Assembly: GCA_018650085.1 (NCBI GenBank)
Contig: JABIGQ010000038.1
Location: forward strand, 4,388-68,387
From: Candidatus Magasanikiibacteriota bacterium
Lineage (GTDB): Bacteria; Patescibacteriota; Patescibacteriia; Magasanikbacterales; UBA922
Direction: 5' to 3'
Length of the DNA stretch: 64,000 bases
Below, in pieces: positions 42,192 through 55,500 of the stretch; position 1 is the first letter of the stretch, and each line of letters opens with the position of its first letter. The notes beneath the pieces are model-generated. The model made no database searches, was not told the DNA's origin, and worked only from the letters and a program-made list of their open reading frames with translations. The translations under genes and the position numbers were made by a program.

Positions 42192-42866
42192 ATGCAACCC
42201 ACCACCCAAAACTTCCTATATAAAAACAAATACAAAACAAACACAATTCGCCTAAAAAATTGGGATTATTCAAAAGACGCATTTTATTTTATAACCATAT
42301 GTACAAAAAATAAACAAAATTTATTTGGAAAAATTGAAAATGATGAAATGGTTTTAAATTCATTTGGGGAAATAATAAAAAAATATTGGTTTGAAATCCC
42401 AAAACATTTTGAAAACGTACGATTGGATGAATTTATTGTCATGCCAAATCATGTACATGGAATTTTGATAATTGATGATGGAAATGGTGGTGGAAATGGT
42501 GGTGGAAATGGTGGTGGAAATGGTGGTGGAAATGGTGGTGGAAATGGTGGTGGAAATGGTGGTGGAACAAAGAACAATGCAAAGATGGAGACGCAGCAGT
42601 GCTGCGTCTCTACAAACAAAATAGACGAAAAGATTCAAAAATCAAATACATTTTATAAATTGAAATCTGGTTCATTACCTGTTATAATTCGTTCATATAA
42701 ATCAATTTGTACAAAAACAATAAATAAATTTCAAGATAATATTCGTTTTGCCTGGCAACCAAGATTTTATGAAAGAATCATTAGAAATCAAAAAGAATTT
42801 TTTAATATAAAATATTATATAATTAATAATCCCGCTAATTGGAGGGATGATAAAAATTTTAAATAA
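42192..42866 (+). CDS. IS200/RAYT-family HUH (Y1) tyrosine transposase, with an in-frame ~60-aa insertion.
   Basis: 'FYFITICTKN', HUH motif 'VMPNHVHGILII', 'SLPVIIRSYKSICTKTINK', catalytic-Tyr region 'FAWQPRFYERIIRNQKEFFNIKYYIINNPANW'. Between the HUH motif and the 'IIRSYKS' helix lie (GNGG)x7 and a hairpin-encoded segment. Confidence 0.6.
   Translation: MQPTTQNFLYKNKYKTNTIRLKNWDYSKDAFYFITICTKNKQNLFGKIENDEMVLNSFGEIIKKYWFEIPKHFENVRLDEFIVMPNHVHGILIIDDGNGGGNGGGNGGGNGGGNGGGNGGGNGGGTKNNAKMETQQCCVSTNKIDEKIQKSNTFYKLKSGSLPVIIRSYKSICTKTINKFQDNIRFAWQPRFYERIIRNQKEFFNIKYYIINNPANWRDDKNFK
42481..42564 (+). repeat. Perfect tandem repeat (GAAATGGTGGTG)x7 inside the transposase ORF.
   Basis: Seven identical 12-bp units encoding GNGG repeats. 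In-frame. Confidence 0.9.
42588..42610. repeat. Second copy of the palindromic hairpin GAGACGCAGCA-G-TGCTGCGTCTC, inside the transposase ORF.
   Basis: Perfect 11-bp stem immediately after the tandem repeat. Confidence 0.55.
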
Positions 42867-42874
42867 AAAACAAT

Positions 42875-43567
42875 ATGAAACTCAAACAAATAAAATCGAC
42901 ATACTTCAAAGAAAACCAAAAGTATGATTTTCTTTTTCCTATTGGTTCTACTGAACAACATGGAGCATTTATTCCATTTGGGACAGATACATATATTACA
43001 GATTATTTAGTTGATAAAATTTCTAAAGAATTTCCAGAATTAATTGTTTTACCAACTTTAGAAGTTTCAAGATCAGAAGAACATAGAGGTTTTTATGGTA
43101 GTCTTTGGATAACAGAAGAAACATTAAAAGCTGTAATGTTTGATATTTGTAATTCACTTAAAGATAGGGCAAGAAATATCTTTATTACATCTTTTCATGC
43201 CAATGGTTCATATATTGAAAGTTTTATTAAAGAAAATAATTTTGATGGTGTAAATATTGTTCATCTTGAAATAGAACATGAAGAAGATGATAAGGTAATA
43301 GAGCAAATTCTTGGAGGAGAAATGGATAATCATGCTGGAAATTCAGAAATATCAAATATGCTCGTAATTGATGAAAAATTAGTAAAAGTTCCTTCCGAGA
43401 ACGAGCCTAAAACACAAGTAGACAATCCTTTTGAAACAGATAAATTGATAGAGAAGTGTCCAAACGGAATAGCAGATAATCATCCAAAATGGATAGTAGA
43501 TAAAGAAATTGGGAAGAAAATTCTTGATATTTATGTTGCTAGGATGATTGAGAATTTGAATATATGA
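42875..43567 (+). CDS. Creatininase-family amidohydrolase.
   Basis: 'FLFPIGSTEQHGAFIPFGTDTYI' matches the creatininase-fold metal-binding signature (GSxEQHG...D). Confidence 0.65.
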   Translation: MKLKQIKSTYFKENQKYDFLFPIGSTEQHGAFIPFGTDTYITDYLVDKISKEFPELIVLPTLEVSRSEEHRGFYGSLWITEETLKAVMFDICNSLKDRARNIFITSFHANGSYIESFIKENNFDGVNIVHLEIEHEEDDKVIEQILGGEMDNHAGNSEISNMLVIDEKLVKVPSENEPKTQVDNPFETDKLIEKCPNGIADNHPKWIVDKEIGKKILDIYVARMIENLNI

Positions 43568-43860
43568 CAAACCTACAAAAAATCCAAAAACAAATATACC
43601 AAAATAAAATAGATAAAGGATTTAATATAACAGATATTCCTTTACAATTTTGTCTTACACAAGGGGAACTTGCAGAGGCTTTTGAAGCATATAGAAAAAA
43701 ACTTCCAAGTGTAGGTGAAGAATTGTCAGATGTTGCAATATATTTGTTTGGATTAGCTGAAATTCTAGGAGTAGATTTGGAGGAAGAGATTTTGAAGAAG
43801 ATGGAAAAGAATTCGAAGAGAGTATATGAAAAGGTGGATGGGGTATTGAAAAGAGTATAA
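43564..43860 (+). CDS. MazG-like nucleotide pyrophosphohydrolase (small all-alpha NTP-PPase).
   Basis: 'GELAEAFEAYRK...GEELSDVAIYLFGLAEILGVDLEEEI' has the EExxE/D metal-binding helices of MazG-type NTP-PPases. Confidence 0.6.
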   Translation: MTNLQKIQKQIYQNKIDKGFNITDIPLQFCLTQGELAEAFEAYRKKLPSVGEELSDVAIYLFGLAEILGVDLEEEILKKMEKNSKRVYEKVDGVLKRV

Positions 43861-43906
43861 TAATTAAAAAACTGTTACCAGTGGTTGCATAAATAAACAA
43901 AAACAT

Positions 43907-44923
43907 ATGACAAAAACCCTTCAACAATTTTCAAATTTCGTTATATTCAAAACATCTACAGGGAAAATAAATATAGATGTATTTTTTCAGGATGACACAC
44001 TTTGGCTCACACAAAAGAAGATTGCAGAGCTTTTTGAAACCACAACTCAAAATATAACATTGCATTTGAAAAATATATTTCAAGAAGGAGAACTTATTAA
44101 AGATTTAACTTGTAAGGAATTCTTACAAGTTCAAAAAGAAGGTAATAGAGAAGTAAAAAGAAAATATAAATACTATAACCTAAAAGCAATCACAGCTGTA
44201 GGATATCGTGTAAATTCTACTCGAGCAACAGAATTTAGAAAATGGGCAAGTGAGATTTTAAATGAGTATATTGTAAAAGGATATGCCATGGATGATGAAC
44301 GCCTTAAAAATATAGAAAATTTTGGTATTGATTATTTTGACGCCATGCTTGAGAGGATTCGAGAAATTCGCATGAGTGAACGGCGTTTGTATCAAAAAAT
44401 TACCGATATTTATGCTCTTTCAGCAGATTATAGTACACAATCAGATATTACAAAACATTTTTTTGCTACTGTACAAAATAAATTGCATTGGGCTATTACA
44501 GGAAAAACAGCAGCAGAAATTATTTATAATGAAGTTGATGCAAAAAAGATTTATATGGGTTTAAAGACATGGAAGAACGCTCCAGATGGTAAAATTTTGA
44601 AAAGTGATGTAACTATTGCAAAAAATTATTTGAATGAAAAACATATTGACGCACTTAATCGTATTGTAAATAGTTATCTTGATATTGCAGAAAATAAAGC
44701 TCGAAATGGTAAGGTTATGAATATGACAGATTGGGATATTTATTTAGAACAATTTTTGGAACTTTCTAATTATCCACTTTTGAAAGATGCTGGAAAAATA
44801 TCTATGTTTGAAGCAAAGTTAAAAGCAGAGTCAGAATATGACGTTTTTCGTGTTGAACAAGACAAAAATTACATTTCAGATTTTGACAAAGAAGTACAAA
44901 AGATGCTTGATGTAAAAGAATAA
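43907..44923 (+). CDS. RhuM-family protein (Virulence_RhuM).
   Basis: 'YYNLKAITAVGYRVNSTRATEFRKWASEILNEYIVKGYAMDDERLKN' closely matches the conserved RhuM core. Recalled from memory, not searched. Confidence 0.55.
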   Translation: MTKTLQQFSNFVIFKTSTGKINIDVFFQDDTLWLTQKKIAELFETTTQNITLHLKNIFQEGELIKDLTCKEFLQVQKEGNREVKRKYKYYNLKAITAVGYRVNSTRATEFRKWASEILNEYIVKGYAMDDERLKNIENFGIDYFDAMLERIREIRMSERRLYQKITDIYALSADYSTQSDITKHFFATVQNKLHWAITGKTAAEIIYNEVDAKKIYMGLKTWKNAPDGKILKSDVTIAKNYLNEKHIDALNRIVNSYLDIAENKARNGKVMNMTDWDIYLEQFLELSNYPLLKDAGKISMFEAKLKAESEYDVFRVEQDKNYISDFDKEVQKMLDVKE

Positions 44924-44944
44924 TATATTAATAGAATAAACCAT

Positions 44945-45490
44945 ATGAAAAAAACATTCACCACAACTCTCTTAATAGCACTTTGTTTTATTACAATAGG
45001 ATGTACAAAAACTGATGTAAAAAATAATACAGAACAAGAAGAAACCGATACAATAGAGATTATCGATGAGGTGGAAGATATGGATGTGAAAGAAACTGAA
45101 ATAAATATAGAAAAAGTAGTATATGATTGGGAAGGAGATTTAGAAGATGTAACAAAAGGAAAAACAATACTTGGAGTAAACACGGAAGGAACCTCATCTG
45201 GATTTGCTCAAGCAGTATTTAATAATACATATACATTGCAAGCGGTATTTGAAGGATTACCAGATCCAGAAGGAACAGATTTTTATGAAGGATGGATTGT
45301 GCGGAGAGAAGGGAGTTTTAATGTTATTAGTACAGGAAAAGCAAGCAAAATTGATGGGGTGTATAAAAATGTCTATGAATCTGAGAAAGATCTAAGCGAT
45401 CATACATTTTATGTGCTTACTATTGAACCAGATGATGGAGATCCCGCACCTGCAGAGCATATATTAGAAGGAGTATTGATGAGAAATTAA
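44945..45490 (+). CDS. Lipoprotein, paralog set A.
   Basis: Signal peptide 'MKKTFTTTLLIALCFITIGC' with lipobox ITIGC. Acidic mature domain. Confidence 0.6.
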   Translation: MKKTFTTTLLIALCFITIGCTKTDVKNNTEQEETDTIEIIDEVEDMDVKETEINIEKVVYDWEGDLEDVTKGKTILGVNTEGTSSGFAQAVFNNTYTLQAVFEGLPDPEGTDFYEGWIVRREGSFNVISTGKASKIDGVYKNVYESEKDLSDHTFYVLTIEPDDGDPAPAEHILEGVLMRN

Positions 45491-45491
45491 T

Positions 45492-46160
45492 TTGTTTAAA
45501 AATATGTCACAAAAAAACACACAAGAATACTGGGACACTGTGTATAAAAAAGTAGACACCGTACTTGGGCCAACATTATTTGTAAAAAAAGTGAGTACAT
45601 ATTTCAGTCCACCAAAACATATTTTGGATGTGTGTTGTGGAGATGGAAAAGATTCTCTTTATTTTGCTACACTTGGATATACTGTTACTGCGACAGACAT
45701 TTCTGCTGTGGCACTTTTTGATAATTTACAAAAAAACAATTTAGATATAGAACGTATACAAAGTGATGTTCGTGAACTTGTTCTTGATGCAAATATATAT
45801 GATGTTGTATACTCTTGTTTAGGATTACATTATTTTTCATGGGAGGAAACAAAAAAGATTTTTGCAAACCTTGTACAATCGCTTAAACTAGATGGATATA
45901 TTTGTGTCAGAGTCAAATCTATATATGATGCTGATTATGGAAAAGGAGAAAAACAAGAGGGTAATTTGTTTATTTCAAACAGAAAACAAAGATATTTTTT
46001 TTCTAAAGAAGAAATGGAGAAGTTATTTTTTGAAAATAATATAGAAATAATATGTTCGGAATATGTAGAAGATGTCTTGAAACGATTTGATAAAACAGAA
46101 TATACTGCAAATTTTGTAGATATTATAGGAAAAAAATTAATGAATAATACATTATATTAA
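45492..46160 (+). CDS. Class I SAM-dependent methyltransferase.
   Basis: Motif I 'ILDVCCGDGKDSLYFATLGYTVTATDIS'. Motif II 'YDVVYSCLGLHYF'. Confidence 0.7.
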   Translation: MFKNMSQKNTQEYWDTVYKKVDTVLGPTLFVKKVSTYFSPPKHILDVCCGDGKDSLYFATLGYTVTATDISAVALFDNLQKNNLDIERIQSDVRELVLDANIYDVVYSCLGLHYFSWEETKKIFANLVQSLKLDGYICVRVKSIYDADYGKGEKQEGNLFISNRKQRYFFSKEEMEKLFFENNIEIICSEYVEDVLKRFDKTEYTANFVDIIGKKLMNNTLY

Positions 46161-46173
46161 TATAAAAGAACAT

Positions 46174-46746
46174 ATGAAAAAAACACTTACAACAACTCTT
46201 CTCATCGCACTTTGTTTCATTACCATAGGATGTACAAAAACAGATGTAGAAAATGACTTAGAAAAAGAACGAGGAAATCAAGAACTTTTGACCCAAGAAG
46301 AATTTGATGCGCTTCGAGCAGATGGAGATATTGAATTTGAAGAAGATTATATTCGAGAACTTGATGATGCAACAGAAGAAAGACGTGTAAATGATGCTTT
46401 AGAACTTATTGATGATATAGAAGGATCAAAAGCAGATAAACTTGCTGGAAAAGGCGCTGTAGGAAGTTGTGAGGCTATTGCAGAAAGTTCAACATGTGTT
46501 GAATATCATGGTTCATTTTGGACAAAAGAATCAGCACGATTGAATTGTAGCGATACAGGCAAGTTTTCTACAGAATCATGTCCTACTGATCATGCAGGTG
46601 GATGTAATACTGGTGTGGGAACTATGGCAGATATGGTTTCTTGGATGTATCTTCGTGGTGATGGAGGCATAACAGCAGAATCACTGAAATATGCAAAAAT
46701 GGTTTGTGATGCAACTATGGCGTCACAGTGGATTGTGAGTAAATAA
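46174..46746 (+). CDS. Cys-rich lipoprotein, paralog set A.
   Basis: Signal peptide 'MKKTLTTTLLIALCFITIGC', near-identical to that of 44945. The mature domain carries 8 Cys. Confidence 0.6.
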   Translation: MKKTLTTTLLIALCFITIGCTKTDVENDLEKERGNQELLTQEEFDALRADGDIEFEEDYIRELDDATEERRVNDALELIDDIEGSKADKLAGKGAVGSCEAIAESSTCVEYHGSFWTKESARLNCSDTGKFSTESCPTDHAGGCNTGVGTMADMVSWMYLRGDGGITAESLKYAKMVCDATMASQWIVSK

Positions 46747-46786
46747 AAAAAAGCACGGTATTTGTAGATGCTTTTTTTATCCTCTG

Positions 46787-47032
46787 TTATCCTCGAATTG
46801 TTATAATTTTTATAGAGTCAATATCTGTAAAACGGATAAATCCGTCTATGTCTTCTATTTGGAAGCCATCATCCCTTAGGAATGATATATCATCCAGATT
46901 ATTTAACAGGTATGGATGTTTTATCCCTTCTCCATTTTCGTGGAGTGTGATTTTAAGTTGTTCTGCGCCGTATCGTAGCTCTTCTAAAAGAGCTTTGAGT
47001 CTACTAAGAGTAATCTTTCTTTTTCTTGCCAT
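46787..47032 (-). CDS. Hypothetical small protein, 81 aa.
   Basis: ORF convergent with the lipoprotein gene. No motif. Confidence 0.35.
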   Translation of the reverse strand: MARKRKITLSRLKALLEELRYGAEQLKITLHENGEGIKHPYLLNNLDDISFLRDDGFQIEDIDGFIRFTDIDSIKIITIRG

Positions 47033-47253: not shown

Positions 47254-47326
47254 GCCATCATAGCTCAGTTGGTAGAGCGCAGCCATGGTAAGGCTGAGGT
47301 CTCCAGTTCAATCCTGGATGATGGCT
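47254..47326 (+). tRNA. tRNA-Thr, anticodon GGU.
   Basis: Acceptor GCCATCA/TGATGGC. D-arm GCTC-AGTTGGTA-GAGC. Anticodon stem CAGCC/GGCTG with loop ATGGTAA. T-arm TCCAG-TTCAATC-CTGGA. Discriminator T. No CCA encoded. Followed by a terminator at 47335-47367 (AACAGTTT..AGCTGTT plus T7). Confidence 0.9.
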
Positions 47327-47518
47327 CATTAGTAAAAAACAGTTTCAGAAGAGCTGTTTTTTTATTATCATAGACATACCATACTTGACAAAAATCTTAT
47401 TTTGTTCTAGGCTGATTTACTCATTAACCTAAGTAGACCAAGTCGAGCCTATATCATATAGGTGGTTTACACCTCTCTGGCAGGGAGGTAATTCGAAGAG
47501 CCTGGGAGGGCTTATATC

Positions 47519-48367
47519 ATGGCAGAACTGATACTTAGTGCTAAAGAGAGGACATTGCTTACAGCAATGCAGGACATGGGTGGGTATGCATCAACTTTGG
47601 ATTTGAAAGGAATCCTTGGTATAGAAAGTTCTTCAAATATAGATGCAGTCAGAAGAATAAAGGCAGTCATAGAAAGGATTGGGGAAGCATGTGAGGATGT
47701 GGGAATGGAGAACCCACTTCACGCTTGTTGGTTTCAGGAAGAAGGGGAACGCCATAGGGGGTATAGACTGGCAACTCCTTTGGATAAATTGCTCGTTGCA
47801 GGAGTACTTCCTAGACCATCACAGCGATTCATCAGGGAGCTTCAACGGCGTCAAGCTGTTGGAATCCACTGGGTCATGAAGACCTTTGGGTTTAGCAGAA
47901 AGATAGCTGTTGGTTCAGTCATTGAGCCCATAGTCAGGATTGCTGGTGAACTTGGAATCACACCTTTTGACATAGGTGTGCTGAAGGTGGATGGGGATCC
48001 GCACTGTAGAGTGTGGTTTTTGCACGGTTCCGAAAATCCAGATCCAAAGTGGATCCAGGGTCCTAAGTACTCTCCTCGTCACCCAAAAAAGAAAAAGCCA
48101 TCTCGTCCTCGGAGTACTTCGCAACCTGTAGTGATACGCCGACCAAGCAGGCAGCGTACCAAAGGTAGTGAGTTGAGAGGAAGGATCTTTGATGCGCTTA
48201 AGAGTAGCGGCACTCTTACCATCTTGGAGATTTTTGATCTAACTGGATTAGATGGAAATGAAGTTGTTGGACTACTCAAGCAAGCTAAACCTCCAGAGAG
48301 CGGCGATTTTCGCTGGGCTACTGGTCCTATGGGGCATGAGTACTTACGCTGGATTGGGCCTAGGTAA
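47519..48367 (+). CDS. Hypothetical protein encoded in a compositionally atypical (GC-rich) island. Basic Pro/Arg/Lys-rich linker; possible wHTH.
   Basis: 282-aa ORF in a ~1-kb segment much more GC-rich than its flanks. GGGAGGG lies upstream of the ATG. No family motif. GC-rich DNA yields long ORFs by chance, so coding status is not certain. Confidence 0.45.
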   Translation: MAELILSAKERTLLTAMQDMGGYASTLDLKGILGIESSSNIDAVRRIKAVIERIGEACEDVGMENPLHACWFQEEGERHRGYRLATPLDKLLVAGVLPRPSQRFIRELQRRQAVGIHWVMKTFGFSRKIAVGSVIEPIVRIAGELGITPFDIGVLKVDGDPHCRVWFLHGSENPDPKWIQGPKYSPRHPKKKKPSRPRSTSQPVVIRRPSRQRTKGSELRGRIFDALKSSGTLTILEIFDLTGLDGNEVVGLLKQAKPPESGDFRWATGPMGHEYLRWIGPR

Positions 48368-48449
48368 GTAAAAAATTATTTTGTTTTAGTATAGGAGATT
48401 TTAATGGTCCAATACGCTATAGCGTATGGAACATTACGAAAGTGACTTT

Positions 48450-48489
48450 CAGCGGTTTTTCATTAGGAGATCCCGCTGTATTTTTTTTT
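48450..48489 (+). terminator. Rho-independent terminator after the GC-rich island.
   Basis: CAGCGG-N16-CCGCTG followed by T9. Confidence 0.55.
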
Positions 48490-48500
48490 GGAAATTATTC

Positions 48501-52694: not shown

Positions 52695-53696
52695 ATGTGG
52701 TTTAAAAATATTTTAGATAACAATAAAAAAATCCTTGCACTTGCCCCTATGGCAGACATGACAGACTCACCATTTTGCCAAACAGTAAAGCATATTGGTG
52801 GGTGTGATATTGTATTTAGAGAAATGGTATCTAGTGAAGCTATTGTTCGAGAGAATGAAAAGACACTCTACATGACAGATATAGAAAAAAGTGAACGCCC
52901 TATTGTCCAGCAAATATTTGGCGCAGACCCAAAAATAATGGCACATGCCGCAGCATTAATTGTAGAGAGAACAGCACCAGATGGTATTGATATAAATATG
53001 GGATGCCCTGTCCATAAAATTACGAGCAATTTTAATGGATGCGCCCTTATGAAAGATCCAGATAATGCTGCTGCAATTGTTCAGGAAGTAAAACGAGCAA
53101 TAGGGGACACCCCATTATCTGTAAAAATCCGTCTGGGGTGGAATGATCCAGATACATTTAAAGAATTTATACCAGTACTAGAAGATGCTGGGGCAGAGCT
53201 TATCACTGTACATGGAAGAACGAGATCAGATGGATATAGTGGGCAAGCAGACTGGCAACGTATAGCAGAAGCAAAACGTATTGCCACTGTACCACTTCTG
53301 GCAAATGGAGATATTTCTACCCCTGATCTTGTTTCAAAAGCGCTCGATGTTACAGGTGCAGATGGAGTTATGATAGGACGTGGGGCACTTGGGAATCCAT
53401 GGTTTTTTTCATTGGCGAGTGCTTGTAAAAGTAATGATAGTATTTCATGGGAAGAACGAATAAAGATTATCATGTATCATCTAGATCTACATCTAGCGCA
53501 TTATGGAGAAAAGGCGATAGTGACATTTAGAAAACATATTGGATGGTATTTGAAAACACAATCACTTGGACGAGTGGTTCCTGGTATAAAACAATGGCGT
53601 ATGAAATTGGTGCAGGTTTCTTCTAGGGAGGAAGTGGCGGAGTGTCTGTGGGAGATGAAAGTACTGCTACTTGAAAATAGAGAACCTTTAGGGTAA
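52695..53696 (+). CDS. dus: tRNA-dihydrouridine synthase.
   Basis: 'LAPMADMTDSPFC', 'DINMGCPV', 'VKIRLGW', 'ITVHGRTR', 'ANGDI' are Dus TIM-barrel motifs. Confidence 0.85.
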   Translation: MWFKNILDNNKKILALAPMADMTDSPFCQTVKHIGGCDIVFREMVSSEAIVRENEKTLYMTDIEKSERPIVQQIFGADPKIMAHAAALIVERTAPDGIDINMGCPVHKITSNFNGCALMKDPDNAAAIVQEVKRAIGDTPLSVKIRLGWNDPDTFKEFIPVLEDAGAELITVHGRTRSDGYSGQADWQRIAEAKRIATVPLLANGDISTPDLVSKALDVTGADGVMIGRGALGNPWFFSLASACKSNDSISWEERIKIIMYHLDLHLAHYGEKAIVTFRKHIGWYLKTQSLGRVVPGIKQWRMKLVQVSSREEVAECLWEMKVLLLENREPLG

Positions 53697-53709
53697 GATA
53701 CATTCATAT

Positions 53710-55500
53710 ATGTCAGACATCCCAGATATAAAAGAAAAAATAGATATTGTGGATCTCATGAGCGAATATTTGCAAGTGAAACCCGCAGGAACATATCATA
53801 AAGCATGTTGTCCATTTCATAATGAAAAGACACCGTCTCTTATGATTAGCAGAGAAAGGCAACGGTTCCATTGTTTTGGGTGTAATGCAGATGGAGATAT
53901 CTTTACCTTTATAGAACATATGGAGGGGATGGAATTTGTGGAAGCATTGAAATATCTGGCAGATAGGGCAGGAGTTCAACTTTCCCAAAGAAAATCAGAT
54001 CCAAATAAAAATCAAAAAAATAGAATAAAAGATATCAATGCAGCAGCTGCACGGTTTTTTCATCAATTCCTTTTACAAATGCCAGGAGCAAAACCAGCGA
54101 GAGAATATATAGCGAATCGTGGATTAAAAGAAGAAACAATTGAATCTTGGCAAATAGGGTTTATATCGGATCAATGGGATTTACTTACAAAATATTTATT
54201 AAAAAAAGGACATGCTATTGACGATTTAGTCGCTGCAGGATTAACCATAAAACGAGATAATGCAAACTCAAGTACTGGAAAGGGATTTTATGATAGATTT
54301 CGCGGAAGGATTATGTTTCCTATTTGGGATATTCATGGATATGTGGTTGGGTTTACTGGAAGAGTCCTTGTAGAAACAGAAAAATCTGGTGGAAAATATG
54401 TGAATACACCTCAGACCATTGTTTATGATAAATCACGAGTTGTGTTTGGATTAAATAAAGCAAAACAATCTATAAAAAAACAAGATCAAATAGTGATGAC
54501 AGAAGGGCAAATGGATGTTATAGCTTGTCATCAGGCGGGGATGGAGCATGTGGTTGCTAGTAGTGGGACCGCTCTTACAGAGCATCAAGTCGCATTATTA
54601 AAAAGATATAGCAGTCATATGCGCATTGCATTTGATGCAGATGATGCAGGGCAAAAGGCTGCAAAGCGGGGGATAGATATTGCCCTAGAAGCGGGGATGA
54701 GTGTAAAAGTTATTTGTATTCCAGAAGGTCAAGGAAAAGATCCGGATGAGTGTATAGAGCAAAATAAGGATAATTGGTTTACTGCAGTAGAAAATGCACA
54801 AGATGTTATGGATTGGTATATAGATAAAGCATTTGCAGGAAGATCACTTACAGATCCAAAGGAAAAACAAGCCATAGCAGAAGAAATTTTACCAGAGATT
54901 GCTCGTGTACCATTTGCCATAGAAAAAGATCATTGGTTGCAAATTGTGGCAGATAAGCTGGGAGTAGAGAGTAGGGTATTACGAGAGGATATGGCAAGGA
55001 TAAAGAAGCAAACACCAGAAAAAAAACAACAAATAGTGAAAAAAGAGGTAAAATCAGTGAATACTGAGCAAAAGACAGCAGTACCTACTTCACGAGTTTT
55101 ACAGATAGCGGAACAGTTTTTTTGCCTTATTTTAGCAAAGAATATAGAAGGAGCACCTCAATTATTTGATGAAATTGCTCCTGTATTATCCAACCACCCT
55201 CTTTACGAACCGCTAAAAAACACGTATAATGCTGGGAGAGATATAGAGGCATTGCGTGCATCTGTTTCTTTAGATACGCAGGTGATGATAGATAATTTAC
55301 TTATGCAAGCTGAATTAACGTTTTTATCTTTATCAGATAAAGAGGCGCAGAAAGAAGCAAGTAATTTGGCTACACAGGTAGTGCATATTTGGAAAAAAGA
55401 ACAGCGTACCACTTTACAACAACAAATAGAGGTTGCAGAAAAAGTAGGAAATATAGAACAAGTGAATACTTTATTAAAACAATATCAACAATTAGGCTAA
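53710..55500 (+). CDS. dnaG: DNA primase.
   Basis: Zinc-binding 'CCPFHNEKTPSLMIS...FHCFGCNADGDIFTF'. RNA-polymerase domain. TOPRIM 'MTEGQMDVIA...FDADDAGQKAAKR'. Confidence 0.9.
   Translation: MSDIPDIKEKIDIVDLMSEYLQVKPAGTYHKACCPFHNEKTPSLMISRERQRFHCFGCNADGDIFTFIEHMEGMEFVEALKYLADRAGVQLSQRKSDPNKNQKNRIKDINAAAARFFHQFLLQMPGAKPAREYIANRGLKEETIESWQIGFISDQWDLLTKYLLKKGHAIDDLVAAGLTIKRDNANSSTGKGFYDRFRGRIMFPIWDIHGYVVGFTGRVLVETEKSGGKYVNTPQTIVYDKSRVVFGLNKAKQSIKKQDQIVMTEGQMDVIACHQAGMEHVVASSGTALTEHQVALLKRYSSHMRIAFDADDAGQKAAKRGIDIALEAGMSVKVICIPEGQGKDPDECIEQNKDNWFTAVENAQDVMDWYIDKAFAGRSLTDPKEKQAIAEEILPEIARVPFAIEKDHWLQIVADKLGVESRVLREDMARIKKQTPEKKQQIVKKEVKSVNTEQKTAVPTSRVLQIAEQFFCLILAKNIEGAPQLFDEIAPVLSNHPLYEPLKNTYNAGRDIEALRASVSLDTQVMIDNLLMQAELTFLSLSDKEAQKEASNLATQVVHIWKKEQRTTLQQQIEVAEKVGNIEQVNTLLKQYQQLG

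Follow-up and report, generated by a model that had tools for sequence, protein, structure and literature searches.

Shared 5′ regions and leaders on otherwise unrelated lipoproteins are a textbook trait of Borrelia and Mycoplasma surface biology. In the vsp, vlp and vsa genes of Mycoplasma, a conserved 5′ untranslated region and prolipoprotein signal peptide precede divergent mature regions; the genes form multi-gene clusters that employ site-specific recombinases, invertible elements or phase-variable repeats, and the mature regions are repetitive. The Erp proteins of Borrelia burgdorferi (OspE-related, OspF-related and Elp, the last named for an OspE/F-like leader peptide) have evolutionarily unrelated mature lipoproteins behind homologous operon 5′ ends, the “upstream homology box” (UHB), and leaders, and more than 17 erp genes per strain reside on the cp32 prophage plasmids of this pathogen (PMC9060444). 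Here, we describe two lipoprotein genes that share a 5′ module in a 64-kb stretch of DNA (64,000 nt; hereafter the window) from the genome of an uncultured marine Candidatus Magasanikbacteria bacterium. The two genes, lipo1 and lipo2, flank a methyltransferase gene (MT), and a 117-nt module covers the upstream bases, leader and first mature codons of each (Table 1). These three tightly packed, predicted envelope genes probably record an old capture of a leader between neighbors, which has been kept by selection and occasionally acts as a recombination junction. A literature search returned nothing comparable described for Patescibacteria.

The two module copies form a single ungapped BLASTN match of 117 nt at 82.9% identity, spanning −21 to +96 relative to each ATG, and 17 nt is the longest identical run between them. 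The first 25 residues of both proteins read MKKT[F/L]TTTLLIALCFITIGCTKTDV, with F5L as the sole residue difference. The initial annotation had pointed to near-identical leaders and similar upstream regions, and the alignment bears this out. Ten nucleotide differences fall within the 75 nt of the leader; seven of the affected codons are synonymous and only codon 5 is non-synonymous. Counted by the Nei-Gojobori method, this corresponds to 8 synonymous differences on 17.8 sites and 2 non-synonymous differences on 57.2 sites, giving a synonymous divergence (dS) of 0.68, a non-synonymous divergence (dN) of 0.036, and a ratio (omega) of about 0.05 (Fisher p 8.8e-5). Upstream of the start codons, TATATTAATA occupies positions −21 to −12 in both copies and occurs one other time on that strand in 64 kb. 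The upstream stretch of copy A comes immediately after the stop codon of a RhuM gene, and that of copy B overlaps the end and stop of MT (TTA TAT TAA). The modules are direct repeats and bound a 1,229-bp unit that comprises one module, the RskA_C mature part of lipo1 and MT.

The window contains two module copies according to a six-frame fuzzy search with the peptide, a degenerate pattern at the DNA level and a scan for lipoboxes. The degenerate pattern hit exactly these two sites, and none in 100 shuffles. The only other plausible lipobox open reading frame (ORF) in the window (4302, minus strand) has an unrelated leader. Searching 5.8 billion protein clusters with lipo2 recovered 19 proteins, of which 17 are lipo2 relatives and two belong to the lipo1 family and were reached through the leader only (E about 3e-7); no third protein family bearing this leader appeared among them. 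A leader-only profile likewise gave no candidates in a word-indexed protein search.

The age of the shared leader emerges from comparison with a sister lineage, in which lipo1 (173 aa) and lipo2 (189 aa) both carry the same leader. Orthologous leaders of the window and the sister lineage differ at a dS of 0.53, and the mature part of lipo2 at a dS of 0.71 with an omega of 0.21. The divergence between the two copies within the window is thus about that between orthologues, which argues that the module was copied long ago and that its peptide has been held by selection. The leader has an omega of 0.05-0.10, compared with about 0.2 for mature lipo2; purifying selection (omega 0.13-0.21) also acts on the two mature domains, each of which belongs to a conserved family. 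The proposal that selection acts on the peptide, and that the likeness does not stem from recent duplication, therefore stands: dN/dS is 0.05, dS is 0.68, and the sister lineage shares the leader.

The direction of the capture is suggested by more distant relatives. Distant lipo2 orthologues (53-63% identity) retain GC-TKTDVEN[DE]L after the lipobox, and one of them (P0005) has a diverged yet recognizable version of the whole leader, MKKTLTTLCILALCFVTVGCNKTEI. Homologues of lipo1 outside the clade begin instead with unrelated transmembrane or lipobox N-termini. Because the leader features persist in distant lipo2 orthologues and not in lipo1 homologues outside the clade, the module is probably native to lipo2 and secondary on lipo1, and copy B is probably the original. 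The first gene of the trio would thus have taken on a secondary copy of the third gene's 5′ module before the window and sister lineages split. This could have happened through insertion of a segment holding the RskA_C-type gene and MT into the 5′ part of lipo2, which duplicated the module, or through partial gene conversion that copied the module. Either route would leave the 1,229-bp unit bounded by 117-nt direct repeats. Synonymous sites would afterwards have drifted nearly to the orthologue level while the peptide stayed almost constant. The simplest reason for this constancy would be that both proteins rely on the same export, lipidation and tethering signal: the rules applied below predict Sec export, acylation at Cys20 and tethering on the outside of the membrane by the acidic linker. 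The feature is real and non-random, and it has an ordinary explanation, old leader capture between neighboring genes.

Table 1. Coordinates of the module copies, the three genes and adjoining features in the window.
Feature	Positions	Strand	Description
5′ module copy A	44924..45040	+	21 nt upstream, signal peptide and lipobox (codons 1-20), first ~12 mature codons of lipo1
5′ module copy B	46153..46269	+	On lipo2; begins with 8 nt that belong to the 3′ end of MT (last codons and stop)
lipo1	44945..45490	+	181-aa predicted lipoprotein with acidic linker and C-terminal RskA_C-like (PF10099) extracytoplasmic domain
MT	45504..46160	+	Class I S-adenosylmethionine (SAM)-dependent methyltransferase (Methyltransf_25/11, TehB-like fold), 218 aa
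lipo2	46174..46746	+	190-aa predicted lipoprotein with acidic helical linker and C-terminal ~95-aa alpha/beta domain with 6 invariant Cys
Variable accessory genes	42192..44923	+	RAYT-like HUH/Y1 transposase homologue, creatininase-family amidohydrolase, MazG-like pyrophosphatase, RhuM
Weak A-run/hairpin/T-run	46746..46778	no strand	3′ of lipo2, facing the convergent 81-aa ORF; minimum free energy −7.7 kcal/mol, z −1.5, not significant

All three genes lie on the plus strand, with a 13-nt spacer on either side of MT. The PROSITE rule PS51257 requires a K or R within the first 7 residues, an uncharged h-region, and [LIVMFWSTAG]2-[LIVMFYSTAGCQ]-[AGS]-C with the Cys at 15-35. Both leaders satisfy it, as read directly from the sequence: K2 and K3 are present, residues 10-15 (LIALCF) are uncharged, and I16-T17-I18-G19-C20 forms the lipobox. 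Residue −3 of the lipobox is T in both proteins, where L, V or I is usual. Lipidation of lipo1 and lipo2 is predicted from these rules.

Behind the shared leader, the mature parts of lipo1 and lipo2 are unrelated in sequence, as the initial annotation had proposed, one being RskA_C-like and the other a 6-Cys domain. The match of lipo1 to the Pfam RskA_C model (E 5.7e-4, 20.6 bits; model positions 47-130 of 135) falls under the 29.4-bit gathering threshold. PF10099 is matched by 15 of the 18 close lipo1 homologues (E up to 0.001, best 1.8e-9), and a precomputed match exists for most of the 120 listed homologues. The family counts 368 homologues, mainly from Patescibacteria with one named archaeon, and some are fused to cupredoxin or thioredoxin domains. 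RskA_C is the C-terminal extracytoplasmic domain of the mycobacterial anti-sigma-K factor. In contrast to that protein, lipo1 has no anti-sigma (zinc-finger/transmembrane) N-terminal part, and the domain stands alone on a predicted lipoprotein anchor.

The eight cysteines of lipo2 had been ascribed to its mature domain. The total is correct, but C14 and C20 belong to the leader and six invariant cysteines make up the mature domain. This 6-Cys domain is found across Patescibacteria and belongs to no named family. Neither the lipo1 nor the lipo2 family profile matched a PDB sequence, and neither lipoprotein matched PHROG. One relative of lipo2, with 56% identity over residues 72-190, lies on an Absconditabacterales contig (L028, DAOTFU010000012.1) that has almost no long ORFs under translation table 11, a pattern that fits the UGA-recoded code of Absconditabacterales. 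The 6-Cys family thus spans lineages with different genetic codes.

The annotated class I SAM methyltransferase between the lipoprotein genes is confirmed by Pfam Methyltransf_25 (57.7 bits, cut-off 27). Its start is most likely ATG 45504, as called in public contigs, rather than TTG 45492. A more specific assignment, to the TehB tellurite-resistance methyltransferases, was rejected, the best score being 47 bits against NCBIfam equivalog cut-offs of 218-303 bits, and the sequence supports no assignment narrower than class I SAM methyltransferase. A role involving metals or metalloids was also set aside; it had been prompted by the TehB-like fold of MT, the cysteine-rich domain of lipo2 and the RskA_C homologues fused to cupredoxin. 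In distant relatives, MT is absent beside lipo2.

The public copies of both lipoproteins come from a metagenome-assembled genome (MAG) of Candidatus Magasanikbacteria (Patescibacteria, or candidate phyla radiation, CPR) and are labeled hypothetical proteins at NCBI. The contigs derive from metagenomes of marine samples, one of them taken at 200 m in Saanich Inlet (contig SI53jan11_200m). The order RhuM-lipo1-MT-lipo2-(81 aa, minus strand)-[tRNA-Thr]-282 aa-BipA recurs in about 20 contigs, whose sources are several sample sets and one NCBI MAG. In the sister lineage, the order is gltX-236 aa-His_Phos_1-lipo1-MT-lipo2-DUF378...BipA; its lipo2 is 78% identical to that of the window and its lipo1 86%. 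The three-gene unit lipo1-MT-lipo2 is fixed in the strain contigs and the sister lineage. More distant relatives have lipo2 alone, in other gene contexts and with no adjoining MT.

Strain sequences show that the module can act as a junction. A 995-nt sequence recorded in three samples (L025) joins a divergent RhuM 3′ end directly to lipo2. The 15 bases just before the start codon and codons 1-17 of the leader are of the lipo1 type, and the sequence is lipo2 from about codon 23; the RskA_C gene and MT are missing exactly between the two module copies. L025 may be a deletion derivative or represent the state before insertion, and the former is slightly favored because its lipo2 is nearer to that of the window than the sister lineage's is. 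By deletion or pre-insertion alike, the 1,229-bp unit is an insertion or deletion bounded by the module. In another haplotype (L010/L012), RhuM has lost an internal segment in frame (window 44160-44889) at GAAGTAnAAAAGA microhomology, and next to it lies a 120-nt tract (44897-45013) with about 15% divergence whose end falls within the invariant lipobox-coding core. Three sequences (L005, L012, L014) start or end inside the leader region, and three more (L004, L023, L024) are mosaics of window-type and divergent sequence that could be strain chimeras. These recombination signals come from short-read metagenome assemblies, and several of the variant tracts are found at the ends of contigs, the least dependable part of an assembly. 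The initial annotation's idea of the 5′ end as a recombination substrate is thus upheld insofar as L025 exposes the module as a junction, and is not supported insofar as it posits cassettes of a surface-variation system. The strain comparison it proposed in search of cassette shuffling yields one deletion or absence variant (L025) alongside an order fixed in about 20 contigs and the sister lineage.

One may ask whether gene conversion between paralogues and co-occurring lineages has repeatedly homogenized the modules, beyond what selection on the peptide alone would achieve. Such ongoing concerted evolution is an unlikely explanation. Leaders of lipo1 and of lipo2 do not separate from each other as two groups: in L010, the lipo1 leader differs from the window lipo2 leader at 6 positions and from the window lipo1 leader at 10, carrying the lipo2 base at 7 of those 10 sites, and in L025 the lipo2 leader stands 6 differences from lipo1 leaders but 9-12 from lipo2 leaders. 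Moreover, where strains are at least 99.5% identical, the single-nucleotide polymorphisms (SNPs) that set them apart pile up in the module, which holds 17 of 18 for L010 and 3 of 4 for L007. In the window, however, 44% of synonymous sites differ between the copies, so that conversion there cannot have been recent, their longest identical run is just 17 nt, and conversion alone would not give an 8:2 ratio of synonymous to non-synonymous differences. Similar SNP clusters also occur elsewhere. At the Dus/DnaG boundary (53419-53793), about 20-25 strain SNPs fall within 380 nt of contigs that are otherwise at least 99.7% identical, a sign that recombination has brought in a foreign tract there, independently of the lipoprotein genes. 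Patchy recombination is therefore general in this population and not module-specific; given these other clusters and the contig-end position of several variant tracts, the strain SNP clusters were rejected as proof of module-specific conversion.

A more adventurous proposal, which we rate as improbable, gives the leader a role of its own, either as a tag, specific to the lineage, that sorts or tethers proteins to a compartment of the CPR cell surface, or as a portable DNA junction for the exchange of envelope genes among co-occurring Magasanikbacteria lineages, or as both. The portable-junction idea is based on the 1,229-bp unit that is present or absent exactly at the module and on the divergent tracts that end in the lipobox-coding core.

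The initial annotation had likened the conserved 5′ ends to the substrate of recombination-based surface variation, by which the modules would be expression cassettes of a Mycoplasma-like variable lipoprotein system. This is close to refuted. The initial annotation had itself named a total of two copies, with fixed and syntenic orthologues of both genes in relatives, as evidence that would count against it, and the searches and comparisons made here turned up just that. A promoter-proximal region and leader are indeed common to unrelated mature domains, the organism has a small genome and probably depends on a host, a homologue of HUH-type transposases is encoded 2 kb upstream, L025 is a hybrid recombined at the module, and several lipo2 mature alleles (100, 87, 84 and 78% identity) coexist in the same sample sets. 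On the other side, only two copies and no silent reservoir were found; as the copies are direct repeats, recombination between them can only delete lipo1 and MT. The gene order is fixed in the contigs and the sister lineage, with both lipoprotein genes and MT syntenic, and the sister lineage keeps the shared leader even though it lacks the transposase homologue, the only recombinase-like gene at hand. No tandem or homopolymer switch repeats occur in or before the genes, there are no inverted sites, and both mature domains are conserved families under purifying selection. With neither a cassette reservoir nor switching machinery, the locus does not generate programmed surface variation. The fallback offered alongside it, of ordinary paralogues with a generic leader, fails as well: the two proteins are not paralogues, nor is their leader a generic one, as the other lipobox ORF of the window and the lipo1 homologues outside the clade begin with unrelated sequence. 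Recent partial tandem duplication with neutral differences, or chance or convergent likeness of generic leaders, is already refuted: the genes do lie 1.2 kb apart in the same orientation and AT-rich MKK... leaders are common, but a dS of 0.68 beside a dN of 0.036 (p 9e-5) does not fit neutral drift since a recent copying event, both genes of the sister lineage already carry the leader, the homology reaches 21 nt upstream in register, and other leaders are found on the remaining lipobox ORF of the window and on distant homologues of lipo1 and lipo2.

Several observations weigh against old leader capture kept by selection, or at least temper it. The leader sequences form a network and not two clean orthologue groups, which makes it hard to tell purifying selection fully apart from repeated gene conversion. 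The leader profile retrieved only generic look-alike leaders from 1.84 billion cluster representatives, a search in which one member stands for each cluster and which is blind to lineage-specific leaders. Cassette patterns matched nothing in genome, metagenome and viral contig collections, which evidently lack this organism: the pattern works on the local sequence, so that collections without matches simply do not hold it. A query with MT against the metagenome contig collection likewise gave no match. A third module copy in a part of the genome beyond the recovered contigs is unlikely. As for export and expression, no Lgt or LspA domain was found among the 40 window ORFs scanned, and a consensus promoter scan gave no more sites than shuffled sequence, which leaves unsupported the idea that the AT-rich shared TATATTAATA may be a −10-like element for short-leader transcripts. 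The window suggests leaderless or very short-leader mRNAs in this Magasanikbacteria genome; a Shine-Dalgarno-like motif is present in only 3 of its 46 genes. TATAAT-like boxes stand 7-15 nt before the ATG in many of the 46 gene starts.

The surroundings of the trio are more variable than the trio itself. The initial annotation had regarded 42192-46746 as one accessory island. This holds for 42192-44923, where the sister lineage has a 236-aa gene and His_Phos_1 in place of the RAYT-like, creatininase, MazG and RhuM genes; it does not hold for 44945-46746, which is fixed and syntenic. Only the four genes missing in the sister lineage thus look accessory. The RAYT-like (REP-associated tyrosine transposase) gene at 42192-42866 contains a perfect 12-nt tandem repeat (42479-42567, 7.4 copies) that encodes (GNGG)n. 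The corresponding protein of another strain (L001) has two repeat units fewer, 216 vs 224 aa, so the repeat number is strain-variable. RhuM (43907-44923) matches the PADLOC candidate single-gene defence family PDC-S05 (E 1e-140). The stretch from gltX to lipo2 holds different genes in each related lineage and is like a small defence or accessory hot spot.

Downstream of lipo2, the weak hairpin is a possible bidirectional terminator that would end the three-gene unit; it was not picked up by a terminator scan. Further on, the 81-aa ORF (46787-47032, minus strand) and the 282-aa ORF (47519-48367, plus strand) flank tRNA-Thr (47254-47327) and have no family match. They are two of the three window genes with a Shine-Dalgarno-like site, and the GC content is 0.44-0.46 across 47500-48499 vs about 0.30 in the flanks. 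Their place is taken in the sister lineage by DUF378 and a DUF8436/FAD protein. This stretch looks like a foreign insertion at a tRNA.

These findings do not alter current understanding. They do caution that a conserved leader alone is no basis for inferring antigenic variation. As by-products, a Patescibacteria-wide 6-Cys lipoprotein family previously without a named family has been defined, and the stretch from gltX to lipo2 has come to light as a hot spot for variable, partly defence-like genes.

The likeness to Mycoplasma vsp, vlp and vsa is that of a small-genome bacterium in which a conserved 5′ end precedes divergent mature regions. In contrast to those genes, the locus has no multi-gene cluster, no recombinase traveling with the module and no switch repeats, and its mature domains are conserved and globular. 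The closest known architecture is that of Borrelia Erp/UHB, by a resemblance of build and not of family membership: here, too, upstream DNA and a lipoprotein leader, in the form of the 117-nt module, are shared by unrelated mature domains. The Magasanikbacteria locus differs in having two copies in one chromosomal gene cluster with a methyltransferase gene between them, in a free-living or episymbiotic marine CPR bacterium. Unlike the Erp proteins, lipo1 and lipo2 come with no evidence of a host-interaction role, and they have no sequence relationship to Erp. Compared with these elaborate systems, the minimal two-copy case in Patescibacteria would illustrate the first step of such an architecture, the capture of a leader that leaves direct repeats behind without the machinery of variation.

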